Assembly (NCBI RefSeq): GCF_006345805.1
Contig: NC_043002.1
Coordinates: 33,418,001 to 33,482,000 of the forward strand
Direction: 5' to 3'
From: Octopus sinensis
Taxonomy: Eukaryota
Length of the DNA stretch: 64,000 nucleotides
Part shown: one piece after another, positions 14,169-62,100 of the stretch
Numbering within the stretch: the stretch's first letter is position 1
Layout of the letters: every line of letters begins with the position of its first letter
Notes under the pieces: generated by a model
What the model saw: only the letters and a program-made list of their open reading frames with translations
The model's database searches: none
Told to the model about the DNA's origin: nothing
Translations under genes and position numbers: made by a program

Positions 14169-14355
14169 TTGGAATTCACAAAAAACAAAGACCAAAAGAC
14201 GAAGAAAGGTGTATAAACAACAAACAGGTGTATTAGTTTAACGCTCGGGAAGGTGGGAAAGTCTTTTACGTTTCGAGCCTTCGCTCTTCAACAGAAAGGA
14301 ACACGAGAAAATAAACAGAGAGAGAATAAAGAAAGCTTTAGTAGCTAGCGATCGA
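14169..14355 (-). mobile_element. Penelope-like terminal fragment (family H1) ending in (TA)n
   Basis: Homologous to 23170-23354, 38205-38353 and 44788-44870. Contains an HHR motif. Confidence 0.6.
14263..14298 (-). ncRNA. minimal type I hammerhead ribozyme motif (A6U variant)
   Basis: Minus strand: CTTT-CTGTTGA-A-GAGC/GAAG/GCTC-GAAA-CG-TA^-AAAG. Stem I is CTTT/AAAG, stem II is 4 bp, and helix III is the palindrome ACGT. Confidence 0.6.
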
Positions 14356-14543
14356 GTATGTACGTACGTACGTACGTATGTATGTATGTATGTATGTATG
14401 TATGTATGTATGTATGTATGTATGTATGTATGTATGTATGTATGTATGTATGTATGTATGTATGCATGTATGTATACGAGTTTGTATTTGTGCGATTCAT
14501 TTGAATGTATTTATAAATCTATATATGTTTATGGAAATGTTTC

Positions 14544-14605
14544 TCTAGCGACTAGAATTCCTGACTTTCACCAAGGCGGCTCGGGATCAATTTCTGGCAT
14601 GGGAA
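14544..14605 (+). pseudogene. degenerate tRNA-Glu(TTC)-derived sequence (pseudogene or SINE head)
   Basis: TCTAGCGACTAGAATTCCTGACTTTCACCAAGGCGGCTCGGGATCAATTTCTGGCATGGGAA aligns to eukaryotic tRNA-Glu-TTC from the D arm to the acceptor 3' strand. The 5' acceptor strand is missing and the T loop is mutated. Confidence 0.7.
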
Positions 14606-15466
14606 CGCATTATTTTACCACCCTTATGAAATCAACCGCGATAGGACAGTGGAAAAGGTACAATGTCACGGTGGTGCTCTAGCATGACCACAGCCGCATG
14701 GGTGAAACGCATAAATGAAATAAAAGAAATGAAAATATGTGCCAGTTTACATTAAGCTGTTTCCATGTTTACATGCATATTCATATGTGTGTGTCTATGT
14801 ATTCATGTTTACATATACATACATACATACATACATACATGCACATATAAATATATACATATATATATATATACACACACATATATACATACACACACAC
14901 ACATATATATATGCATGTATGTATACTTGATTCGTCACTTTAGTGACGACTTTACCTAGCTTTCTGTTGTAAATTGCGAATGCCCACCTTAATAATTTAT
15001 ATGTGTATGTGTGTATGTATATGAGTACGTATGTATTTATGTATGTATGTATGTATGCCAGAGAAAGCACATAAATGTAAAACAAGGTAGAACAAAAATA
15101 GTACTCGAATACCGGAGGTAAGAGAAGACACCACAAAAACTATGACTCCTGACGAGCGAGAACGTGAAACTCTGAGTAACAGTTTTTGTGATATACTTGC
15201 AGCTTTATTAATAAAAAGTGTGTGTGTGCGTGCGTGTGTGTGTGTGTGTGTGCGTGCGTGTGTGGTGTGTGTGTGTGTGTGTGTGTGTGTGTGTGTGTGT
15301 GTGTGCGCGTGTATACTTGATTATATGAATGACTGTATGTATCTATGCATTCATCTTAGACCTGTTGGTGTGTTGTGTGTTTATGTAGTAACAAGAGTTT
15401 CGGAATTTAGTATTGCGGTAGCGCATGTGTATATTTATTTCTGTTAATGCCAGTGTATATATATAA

Positions 15467-15695
15467 GGTGGCGAGCTGGTAGAAACGTTAGCACGCCGGG
15501 CGAAATTCGTAGCCGTATTTCGTCTGTCGTTACGTTCCGAGTTCAAATTCCGCCGAGGTCGACTTTGCCTTTCATCCTTTCGGGGTCGATAAATTAAGTA
15601 CCAGTTACGCACTGGGGTCGATGTAGTCGACTTAATCCCTTTGTCTGTCCTTGTTTGTCCCCTCTGTGTTTAGCCCCTTGTGGGTAGTAAAGAAA
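15467..15695 (+). mobile_element. tRNA-derived SINE family 2 with Nin-like central domain
   Basis: GAGTTCAAATTCC B-box followed by GCCTTTCATCCTTTCGGGGTCGATAAA..AGTACCAG. Copies at 24815, 26682, 35079, 49790 and 31655. Confidence 0.8.
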
Positions 15696-15789
15696 TATAT
15701 ATAATAGTACGTTATGCGGATGTATACGCACTTTAGTATCTATGATCTATAATGACATGGTGTGTAGATATCACACTCTAATTGTATCA

Positions 15790-58080: not shown

Positions 58081-58371
58081 TATGTGTGCTTATAGCAAAG
58101 AATCAATAGTGTGTATAGAATTTATACTCTTGATTGCACACTGTGTACTATAGTAAGTTGGTAATGTAAACGCAGCACCTCACCTGTGGAATCTGGCATT
58201 TCCCTCATATCGTAGATTTAGCTAACTCACTGGTGAAACAGCTGACCACAAGCTGACGAATGTACGTATGGTAAAGGGCCAGTATTGGCATGACTTTATA
58301 CTTTTACACATATATAACAGATAGGTTCGAATCATTTCAGCGTTACTATATATATATATATATATATATAT

Positions 58372-58575
58372 AAAGTTAATCCAAACAAGAAAGCACAAAA
58401 AACACAACGCGAGGACGTGGAACAAATATAGTATTATTGGACGCTCAGGAAAGAAGGAAAGTAGGAGGGATTAACGTTTCGAGCGGAGCTCTTCGTCGCA
58501 AACATAGGAGAAGGAAAGATCCAGAGAAGGGAAGACAGAGGGAAAAAAATCGCCAACGGTACACGCGCGGTCACA
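58372..58575 (-). mobile_element. Penelope-like terminal fragment (family H2) with HHR-like motif at 58469-58503
   Basis: Minus strand GTTT-GCGACGA-A-GAGC/TCC/GCTC-GAAA-CG-TT^-AATC. It shares the TTCCTGAGCGT motif with family H1 and ends in (TA)n. Confidence 0.55.
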
Positions 58576-59073
58576 AAGAGAGAGAGAGAGAGAGGGGGGC
58601 TATGAGAGGTAAAGGTGTCAATAAGACCCAAAGGTGTCAGGTAATGCTGAGTAAGTGCTATGAACAGACTATAGTTAAGCTCCACACCCTCACTTCCCCA
58701 TTCTTACTATCAATTTATCTTGACTGACCACTAACCAGTACACTTTCTCTCCCCGCTTTTCATTTTTCTTTTCTTTTCTTTATTCCTCTCTCCTTGTTTT
58801 CGATTTGACCTTACAAATACATTCCCAACTTTTAGGTCACTTTAAATATAACCCTCGATTCAATAACACTGCGTACAAACTCTATACTTGGAATGTCCCA
58901 TTTTAAATACTATTGGAACTTACTCACAAGGTATTGAAATCTTATATGTATACCATTCTGAAATATCAGATGTAATATCCCTGCATATCTCACGTCTATT
59001 TTCATTCCTCCACTTCACTCTCTATTTCATATCTTATCTAAAATAACTATTGCTTAACTATTTTCTCACGCCG

Positions 59074-59119
59074 TCTCCGAAGAAGGGATATATAAAATAT
59101 CCTCGAAACAGCTGTAAGA
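59074..59119 (+). ncRNA. minimal type I hammerhead ribozyme motif (U4C variant)
   Basis: TCT-CCGAAGA-A-GGGATAT/ATAAA/ATATCCTC-GAAAC-AGCT-GTA^-AGA with a palindromic loop III. (TA)n begins ~70 nt downstream. Confidence 0.65.
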
Positions 59120-62100
59120 GCTTTTATTTATAAATATCCTAAAATCTTTCACAGCCTTGGATTTTTATCTCATTCTGAAAATTTTATATATATATATATA
59201 TTATATAATGGGCAAACTAAATATATTACAAGAAAACTCAGAAGAAAAGAGTAGAAAGGGTAATTTTTCAAAATGTTATCCTTCAGCAAGCAGTAAAGAA
59301 AAATGATGTTCATTGTATGGTTATCGATAGCGAATACCAACAGCTCGACTAGCAACGCGATTATCGTTCCCGATTGATTTCTAATAGCTAGATCTTGGAA
59401 AACTAGACTTTTCATTTCTCAAAGCAATTAAATTTATAGACACTCATCAAGTCTCCTTTAATTTAACTGTTGTCAATGCTTATCATCTCAAATATCTTTT
59501 GTTTCTGGTTGTTGGTCTTCATAATTGATTGCCTGCATCGTCGTTTAGCCGATGTTAATGCAAAACACTCTCGTGTATCTGTTACACTGTACAACCTGTC
59601 TCATGGCTGGGCAGTCCATGACTAACAAGCTTACGTATCATGGTTTCTTTCTCGACCGATCCTACTTTGTTATGTATTACTCTTCAGGTCTTACATACGT
59701 GTGAGTTTGAACACGCATAATTATTTATGCATTTGTGTGCATAATTGTACATTCTTAGTTACATATGTGTTTTCGTCAATCTGTATGCGTATTTATGCAT
59801 TCGTCGCTATGTTCGTGTATATGAGCGTATATGTGTTTTATTGCATATATTTATCTTTGATTGAGTACATTTTGTCTATAGTACATGTGTTTAATACATA
59901 TACGTGAGTATATTTGTATACACGTTGCAGTGTTGCCCTAGGCTTGTATAAATATTTACTCCTTATATCTGTATTTGCCCAGTTATACAGAGGGTAGCAT
60001 TGTCCCACCAACCTAGACCTGGCTTGCTTACAACAATCACATGAAACTATGGCGAATTCAATTAAAATGTCTTTCAAACACTAAATCGTTTTTGTTGTTT
60101 TTTTTCTCAACTGTTTTTTCCTTCCAATTCTTCTACTCCACTCCATCTCCTTTATTACAATTCTACCTTTTTTCTATAATTATTATTCCTTTCTTCTTTC
60201 ATCCAAACGCCCCGCACACGCACGCACACTCACGCACACTCACGCACACACACTCACGCACATAAACATACATATATGCATATAGCAAACATATATATAT
60301 ACATACGCACATACGCTCACGCATACAAGCATGTGTATAAATATACTTCTAGATATACACGTTCTCACACATATATATATAAATATATATATGTACATGT
60401 ATATATATATATATAGGTATGTATGCATATATGTATGCATTTATGCATGTATGTATGCATGCATGCATGTAACATGAACAGTAGAAAGACAAAACTTATC
60501 AGCAATGCCTTATCTCAGATATATATAATATATATATATATATATTATATATATATATATATGTATATGCATACATACATACATACATACATACATACAT
60601 ATATATATATATATATATATATATATATATATATATATATTATATATATATAATATATATATATATATACATATATATAATATACACACACATATTCGAG
60701 AGAATATCGCCTACTTGTATGTATATGGTATATGTATGTGTATGTGTACAGGCGTACATATACACATACAAACCTACGTATAGGCACACCTGCATGTATA
60801 CTTAATACATACGTGCATTTAGTCTTATTGCATTAATAGACCATAAGATTAATAGACATCATAAGACTTCGTTTCTGTTGGCGGAACCGGAGAGCATCTC
60901 GACTAGTTTCGACTTGTTAAAGCCGTCGTCCTATCACAGACGTCTTTTCATGTGTGTCCTACAAACAGATTTAATGGATGATAAAAGCAAAATCTAGATA
61001 GCATTCACGATGCATAGCAAACTCAGAAATTTGGGGAAGTTCTATTTTCCATATAGACATATATGAGAGAGCTGTCCAAATGCGCACACAAAGAGAGTAA
61101 CTTACATGCACACGCACATAGCATTACACACACACACACACACACACACACACGCCTTTCTATAGCGAATAACCTGCAGCCTACAACCTAGCAATCTCTT
61201 GAACGTAGTGTCAACTTGGAGGGAAATAGCAAGACAGTCTATCGATTGATAGAAATGTAACCAGTTGATGACTGCATTGCTGTCGTTAGTCTATCGCACT
61301 CTACCTATTTCACACTCTCTTTCTATCTATATCTATATATCTCATTCTATCTTGCCCTCTTTCACTCTGTCTCTCCCTCTCTTTCTTTTTCTTGCACTCC
61401 ACCTCTCTGTCTACCCTTATAAGCACATAAACATGTATGAATGAATGAATGTATGTATGCTTGTATGCATGTGTGTGCATGTATAGCCGTGTTCACGTGT
61501 GTCTACGTGCTTGTATATTGACATCTATGTATGTATCTATTTGTACATGCGTAAAGGTATGTTTGTATGTATAAATGTATGTATGAATTTATATACTTAT
61601 ATGTGTTATTTCCTCACTTATTTTTAAACAAATATTCACACATACACACACATCTCTATCCCATCTCTTTCAGTCTATCTATCTATCTATCTATCTATCT
61701 ATCTATCTATCTATCTATCTATCTATCTATCTATCTATCCATTCATCCATCTATCTATCTATCTATCTATCTATCTATCTATCTATCTATCTATCTATCT
61801 CTAATTATCTATCTATCTATCTGTCTGTCTGTCTGTCTATCTATCTACACACGTGCGCGCACAGCTGTATACTCATTGTCTCTCTATCTTCTCATTTACA
61901 TATCTCTATTTACCCTTCTATCCGATGTTTCTATTTGCCCGTCTAACTATGAATGTATCTATTATTTCTCCCTGTCGATCTAACCATCTTAGTCGTCTGC
62001 TTCTGTACGTCTATGTATTCACATACGCACACTCATACATACACACATACACATGCAAGTGTGTACGCCTAACGTACCCTGGGTAGTAACCCCTAGTCAT

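Follow-up and report, generated by a model that had tools for sequence, protein, structure and literature searches.

Which mobile elements carry the hammerhead ribozymes of a microsatellite-rich animal genome, and do all of these ribozymes have their conserved blocks in the familiar type I order? The question is raised by a 64 000-nucleotide (nt) stretch of the 2.72 Gb genome of Octopus sinensis, termed here the window (assembly GCF_006345805.1, contig NC_043002.1, positions 33418001–33482000; other coordinates count from its first base), in which an initial annotation had placed eight type I hammerheads and five 3′-half remnants on short Penelope-like elements (PLEs). We distinguish seven families, with the labels A to G used only in this analysis, and consider it likely that all are PLE-family ends set against (TA)n tracts. 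Five carry type I hammerheads; the other two, F and G, have the blocks in the order S-G-C (cleavage-site block, GAAA, CUGANGA), with predicted self-cleavage as a monomer and, probably, copying by a PLE protein acting in trans. The explanation draws on TA junctions, on the open reading frames (ORFs) joined to families A, B and E, on wrap-around units in C, F and G, and on the block order, core conservation and covariation of F and G. A system of type I hammerheads and (TA)n targets in PLEs is established by publication (Cervera and de la Pena 2014; Craig et al. 2021); what appears from the sequence to be new is the SGC-order hammerhead in high-copy animal retroelement DNA.

Five 3′-half remnants had been proposed. 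Those at 25563, 27425 and 39130 belong to type I families, the one at 60901 is unsupported, and the fifth, at 43165, is something other than the 3′ half of a type I motif. It belongs to a family F 3′ piece at 42928–43185 (minus strand), with GAAA at 43173–43170 and CUGANGA at 43144–43138, which is without block S, is truncated 2 nt 3′ of the predicted cleavage site and ends in TA. Family F has no CUGANGA upstream of GAAA; in all relatives that block lies ∼30 nt downstream, and the bases that follow GAAA and those that precede CUGANGA have their partner strands upstream, one to each side of a U-H step, which gives the order S-G-C. Readings as type I, II or III were rejected, there being no upstream core, no downstream GAAA in register and no stem I hairpin. 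An SGC descriptor found 17 matches in 1.44 Mb, against 1, 0, 0, 0, 2, 0, 0 and 0 in eight shuffles and none in the reversed sequence. Rfam returned nothing relevant for an F copy.

An unguided alignment of 11 chosen F copies, whose three subfamily F4 rows are not in register at block S, has 86% of its cells paired and double changes in 9 of 14 pairs; none of 500 shuffles scored as high, and slid controls gave 40–59%. With the blocks as anchors, stems I and III pair at five of five positions in 7 of the 11 copies, drawn from four subfamilies. The remaining four have stem mismatches, and one of them also has G at position 17. The core letters (CUGANGA, GAAA, A15.1-U16.1 and non-G at 17) are kept across F subfamilies while the stems change. 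Stem II has 4 bp after a 1-nt insert, with one double change.

All six possible block orders were then searched alike in 1.73 Mb, yielding 16 SGC matches, 8 CGS matches and none for the others, with none in three shuffles. This search exposed family G, of which the window holds two copies, both on the minus strand. The first, at 23869–24156, has an intact SGC motif at 23981–24046 with a predicted cut after 24041, a stem III of 5 bp and a stem I of 6 bp, and its 3′ end adjoins a (TA)n tract at 23853–23868. The second, at 25738–26023, has its motif at 25848–25913 and a predicted cut after 25908. Because they arose by local tandem duplication the two are not independent. Both intact motifs had been overlooked in the initial annotation, as had a family A piece at 44788–44869 (described below). 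Among 11 chosen G copies 92% of cells are paired and 5 of 15 pairs show double changes, and again 0 of 500 shuffles scored as high. These results bear on the simplest alternative, that only the known type I system is present and the SGC pairing is a coincidence among repeats. Subfamily F1 does share the word ACGU with family A, as that alternative would have it; yet the upstream CUGANGA is missing, subfamilies F2 to F4 are not palindromic at the ACGU position but pair in cis all the same, and two crossing helices covary in two families where shuffles give almost nothing. We regard the alternative as largely refuted already, and hardly credible.

It is harder to say whether the SGC folds cleave unaided. 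They could be real but non-cleaving, or need a protein or a second RNA, and act as a platform on which the PLE protein binds or is positioned. Several observations on structure, on template use and on coding capacity weigh against self-cleaving, PLE-mobilised F and G. Stem II is weak in F (G-C, G.U, G.U or G-C, G-C) and ambiguous in G, where two registers are available and closure by G-C would require 5 inserted nt after A9, against the 1–2 nt permitted by Eckert et al. (2023, PMC10085705). A fourth helix between the distal ends of stems I and II, which those authors found necessary, was sought by eye, and no register was common to all subfamilies; none is thus established. The pair counts rest on related copies (about four subfamilies in F and three or four in G) and on a structure read from those same copies. 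No ORF was found beside any F or G copy in the loci examined, and a motif scan for a protein of the type encoded by Naiad PLEs found nothing in the fetched loci. Nor do copies clearly pile up at the cut sites. Only 4 of 40 F1 places start within −3 to +9 of the site, one of them being the query, so that no clear 5′-end accumulation is seen. In family A none of 70 unselected copies (the first 70 fetched along contig C1) starts within 5 nt of the cut and 63 start upstream of it, indicating that cut RNA is not the usual template; a 5′-end pile-up, considered as a mark of cleavage in vivo, was accordingly discarded for A. Finally, the ribozyme of an Anolis PLE was dispensable for insertion in vitro (Frangieh 2024).

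The same source reports that the Anolis ribozyme needs protein, and slow cleavage in vitro is described for the hammerheads of PLEs (Cervera and de la Pena 2014, PMC4209133), both of which favour a non-cleaving or assisted structure. On the other side, the catalytic-core letters are kept across subfamilies while stems vary, and the SGC ribozymes known from metatranscriptomes cleave unaided (Eckert et al. 2023). We therefore judge a purely structural or assisted role unlikely and prefer predicted self-cleavage in cis. The predicted cut sites fit constructs of 60–80 nt and are testable within days.

As elements, F and G are units without an ORF. F1 is ∼850 nt long, and in 5 of 40 fetched places (L416, L418, L421, L378 and L387) the 3′ end of a unit continues into another unit. 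G units, of 725–880 nt, also stand head to tail, three in a row at L436 with a period of 871–879. The 3′ end of F is fixed and runs into TA in about 22 of 25 loci, as read by eye and with some duplicates among them. Either family might instead be a SINE-like (short interspersed element-like) or satellite repeat moved by other machinery, its nearness to TA following from a TA-rich genome. The lack of an ORF link in the loci examined fits this, as does a window background of 30% for TA within 260 nt; but the fixed end of F, inverted tail-bearing 5′ copies, more-than-unit copies and a TA-like word at the junction together make up the layout described for PLEs (Craig et al. 2021, PMC8557442), and we find other machinery very improbable. 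As a separate observation, the tail of F units (L374, L011 and L242) and of a G unit (L323) ends in a word like a 5′ splice site followed by a long pyrimidine tract, and F has a word like a 3′ splice site ∼30 nt before the cut. These words resemble the intron reported beside the Penelope ribozyme of D. virilis.

The closest described ribozymes are those of type SGC (Eckert et al. 2023, PMC10085705), with which F and G share the full core, covarying stems I and III of 5–7 bp and a short linker between stems I and II. They differ in lying in high-copy animal DNA, in a linker of 5–7 nt and in the insert after A9, of 1 nt in F and possibly 5 nt in G. In the consulted text of that study, type SGC comes from metatranscriptomes only, with none in the genomes of known organisms even though RefSeq 85 was searched, and the related order CSG is represented by two metagenomic sequences. 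We found no report of an SGC hammerhead from any animal genome in the literature since 2023, in searches pairing cephalopod or octopus with hammerhead, or in the supplement of Eckert et al., a search that most subscription papers fall outside. Rearranged folds in animal DNA would place SGC and CSG in a host, assign them a task in the genome and supply numerous natural variants. Among retroelements, C, F and G resemble non-LTR (long terminal repeat) retrozymes (Cervera and de la Pena 2020, PMC7229834; Li et al. 2026, bioRxiv 10.64898/2026.07.22.740005), proposed PLE derivatives that likewise form ORF-less head-to-tail units with one ribozyme each; they differ in unit length (507 and 725–880 nt, against ∼300), in being mostly dispersed and, for F and G, in the SGC order.

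A more specific relationship is with the Naiad PLEs. These are stated to lack canonical hammerheads, with eight flagged as having a ‘half core’ (Craig et al. 2021, PMC8557442, in the consulted portion). We read by eye, without a shuffle control, the last 400–500 nt of 45 of the 54 consensus sequences in File S5 of Craig et al., taking names from the file order. Complete SGC or CSG folds were seen in 10 of the 45. Six nematode ends (Nbra-1, -2, -3, Hcon, Hpol and Asuum) have the order C-S-G with the core and all three stems, and four (Obim, Ovul, Plae and Smim) have S-G-C with a stem II of 2–3 bp or with a 2-nt bulge; two cephalopod ends have a layout like that of F. Stems I and III without a clear stem II were seen in Anas, Aacu, Movir-2 and Ptep, and 31 of the 45 ends, including all bivalves, showed no fold in the part viewed. 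Separately, bivalve and hemichordate ends carry a different GC-rich motif right after the ORF, without a hammerhead core in the part viewed, which is possibly another structured RNA. F and G share (TA)n targets, tails and inversions with Naiads and differ in having no ORF; since no Naiad ORF was found beside the fetched copies, the link rests on this shared architecture, which makes it plausible that they are non-autonomous relatives of Naiad PLEs. Rearranged block order is, on the evidence of these ends, the likely explanation of why Naiads were thought to lack hammerheads, and if true this would remove the stated puzzle of how they spread without canonical ones. More broadly, and with somewhat less assurance than for the octopus families themselves, we think it probable that hammerheads that are not circularly permuted are normal in animal retroelements: SGC would drive thousands of ORF-less, TA-targeted units here, and SGC and CSG folds would be the ‘missing’ ribozymes of Naiads in molluscs, spiders, acanthocephalans and nematodes, acting as monomers where canonical PLE ribozymes need dimers.

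The type I set around them comprises family A, of Neptune/Nematis type, its sister D, without an ORF, the Hydra-type families B and E, and C, a 507-nt ORF-less tandem unit. That type I sites are the 3′ ends of PLEs inserted in (TA)n, a known system, we hold to be highly likely. The conserved core and helices I and II occur in C-G-S order in all five families, with the variants U6 in A and C4 in D and E. All eight sites have the coordinates and strands first reported (14263–14298, 43587–43646, 44097–44156 and 58469–58503, minus; 23219–23256, 38230–38265, 39772–39859 and 59074–59119, plus). The type I fold claimed for each is intact at 14263, 23219, 39772 and 59074 and decayed at the other four. 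A type I descriptor with a palindromic helix III matched just those four in the window, with a single match over 50 shuffles, and its predicted cuts, after 14267, 23251, 39853 and 59116, agree with the initial annotation. The sites at 38230, 58469, 43587 and 44097 are decayed copies of real families whose core is present genome-wide. An Rfam scan of the window gave no match at the gathering score, and at a loose threshold only microsatellite-driven microRNA matches among the 150 of 503 listed.

A palindromic helix III had also been proposed. With helix III left free, the search gave 206 matches in ∼1.4 Mb of fetched loci, forming 32 groups, and none in three shuffles; helix III is self-complementary in 23 of the 32 although nothing was demanded of it, so its palindromy is not an artefact of the search. 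Computed helix III self-dimers range from −1.7 to −11.1 kcal/mol, and no monomer hairpin was obtained. The G10.1-C11.1 pair and an extra nucleotide after A9 are present in A and D, and the pair is replaced by a mismatch in B, C and E. First-look genome searches, which give candidates and not copy numbers, returned 642 for A, 1651 for B, 139 for C, 1913 for D, 2400 for E and 2627 for F. The proposed (TA)n anchoring is borne out by 64 of the 70 unselected A copies, against a background of 7.8%; in crude classes, TA stands at the junction in 28 of 30 D copies, in 16 of 30 B copies (6 more with a tail) and in 14 of 30 E copies (14 with a tail). A sample of 39 genome stretches, each 10 kb long and placed at round coordinates, contained four intact type I motifs, and the window is thus richer in them than average. 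At least 15 further type I groups with other self-complementary helix III words were also noted, most of them followed by TA (e.g. L101, L236, L274, L286, L299, L378, L384 and L385).

That such hammerheads are borne by PLEs landing in (TA)n is upheld by the ORFs joined to families A, B and E. Two other parts of the initial description are not: most of the ‘short elements’ are 5′-truncated ends of full PLEs, and the system is not invisible to ORF-based annotation, since PLE ORFs are abundant (13 154 first-look candidates). Family A is the clearest case. A 27-nt word from its 3′ end occurs exactly 8517 times genome-wide, its reversed control not once. At locus L014/L031 the sequence upstream of the motif encodes the thumb of a reverse transcriptase (RT) along with a CX4CXXC linker and a domain of the GIY-YIG type. 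A genome search with this piece gave 150 scored matches, most at ∼90% identity, and of 30 such loci fetched 29 have a type I motif downstream, with TA 90–128 nt after it in 26 of these. The full layout is seen at L153, where pseudo-LTRs (pLTRs) at 591–1368 and 5095–5877 are 96% identical, each with a motif, and flank a frame of 1009 amino acids matching RVT_1 (E 1.3e-7) and, below the cut-off, GIY-YIG (E 0.008). The family thus has a single ORF with RT, cysteine linker and C-terminal GIY-YIG, and also DKG, between pLTRs. It matches Neptune/Nematis as described by Craig et al. (2021, PMC8557442) in DKG, linker, C-terminal GIY-YIG and pLTRs, with nothing essential differing in the portion consulted. 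A PDB sequence search with the family A frame gave no match, and Pfam was uninformative for the short endonuclease (EN) piece alone.

In the window, family A 3′ ends lie at 14169–14330 (minus; hammerhead 14263–14298 with U at core position 6 and TA 99 nt past the cut), 23159–23352 (plus; hammerhead 23219–23256, cut after 23251) and 38206–38353 (plus; hammerhead 38230–38265, GAAA/helix III broken), and the piece at 44788–44869 (plus) is the part downstream of the hammerhead. Core position 6 is U in 52 of the 70 unselected copies (11 have no readable core and 7 differ) and also in full-length, young elements, and is therefore not decay. The natural A6C variant is slow (Perreault 2011, in the part consulted), and a literature search for A6U found no hammerhead paper; this and the G10.1-C11.1 mismatches of B, C and E may already be known. 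Family A thereby offers a natural core change in a young, abundant element. Sister family D, at 58372–58575 (minus), resembles A in helix II, helix III and downstream sequence and, among score-selected copies, has a similar 5′ boundary; its core is CCGANGA, C3 is lost in the window copy (58469–58503), and 30 loci yielded no ORF. There is also a further PLE family, AT-rich and with a linker of Neptune type (L050:136–1310, L281 and L345), which is tied to no window motif.

Family B occupies 39001–39890. An inverted tail-bearing 5′ end at 39001–39159 (minus), holding the remnant 39130, is continued by a 3′ untranslated region (UTR) end at 39148–39890 (plus), whose type I hammerhead at 39772–39859 has a long helix II and U.U at 10.1/11.1, with TA 51 nt past the cut. 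A remnant of a B sister at 25515–25694 (minus), with a hammerhead 3′ half and an inverted tail, recurs at 27377–27556 (minus), and the remnants at 25563 and 27425 are thus one insertion doubled by a local 1.87-kb duplication. The supposed remnant at 60901 was rejected as a repeat: 60770–61060 is single-copy, having no second genome copy in a search that passes over very common words, and its hammerhead-like 3′ half would be a chance match or a very old remnant. Family E spans 58577–59185 (plus), with an inverted tail at 58577–58682 and a 3′ UTR end at 58685–59185 containing the hammerhead at 59074–59119. A Hydra-type endonuclease lies upstream, on the strand of the motif, in no fewer than 4 of 30 loci for B and 2 of 30 for E. 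The marks of the Hydra clade (Craig et al. 2021, PMC8557442) are CxCX5C, DKT, RWK and CxxC/CxH; E relatives have DKT and RWK in the RT, the CxCX5C linker and CxxC and CxH in the EN, and B has the EN motifs only. Family C, at 43298–44282 (minus), consists of head-to-tail 507-nt units with decayed hammerhead cores at 43587–43646 and 44097–44156; each unit tail runs directly into the next unit, none of 30 copies leads into other shared sequence, and no ORF was found.

Families A to E agree with the minimal type I hammerheads described from metazoan PLEs (Cervera and de la Pena 2014, PMC4209133) in lying in pLTRs, in a short helix I, in a helix III that is tiny or palindromic, in the many families within one genome, in the predominance of truncated solo copies and, for A and D, in the extra nucleotide after A9; they differ in the U6 of A and the mismatches of B, C and E. 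A preference for (TA)n is reported for Neptune, Naiad and Hydra elements (PMC8557442).

How such copies might arise can be sketched for both classes. The PLE endonuclease with its cysteine linker would nick (TA)n, a hypothesis of Craig et al., and reverse transcription would start inside the RNA at a TA-like word 50–270 nt downstream of the ribozyme. In A, C, E, F and G the junction sequence, as it stands in the element itself, is TA-like, and with such a start site in the A element the nicked target could pair with the RNA. An internal start site has been shown for the Anolis PLE (Frangieh 2024); of the two elements, only A has one that reads TA-like. Most copies would stop early, and early stops together with inversions would leave short pieces. 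The ribozyme would cut tandem transcripts to unit length, and the units may circularise, as Cervera and de la Pena propose in their model; for this a type I motif would depend on a second copy as its partner, whereas SGC motifs, forming helix III in cis, would need none.

The 5′ ends of the 70 A copies speak to the question of whether any template cutting by PLE ribozymes takes place. Counted from the cut site, 18 lie at −270 or beyond, 27 from −124 to −91 (3 of which probably continue in diverged sequence), 18 from −85 to −15, none from −14 to +6 and 7 from +7 to +48. Short A copies may have been read, beginning at the internal start, from RNA that was uncut and had a defined 5′ end, and long or more-than-unit copies may derive from a tandem or circular RNA template.

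Different families adjoin within one TA tract at several places in the window, namely D and E (58372–59185), F and C (42928–44282) and G and the B sister (25515–26023), as would follow if every insertion provided a landing site for a later one. Through the local tandem duplication of ∼1.87 kb (23869–25683 and 25738–27545, 98–100% identical), the G copy, a SINE-like piece and the B-sister remnant are each present twice. At 78–5811 there are broken pieces of a non-LTR retrotransposon frame set against (TAA)n, with a cysteine knuckle and an RPDI-type motif, which may be akin to R4/Dong-type elements. One or two SINE-like repeats are present in many copies, often split by CA/TA tracts, at 3059–3444, 17936–18288, 25261–25432, 30412–30796, 50633–50832, 51551–51773 and other positions.

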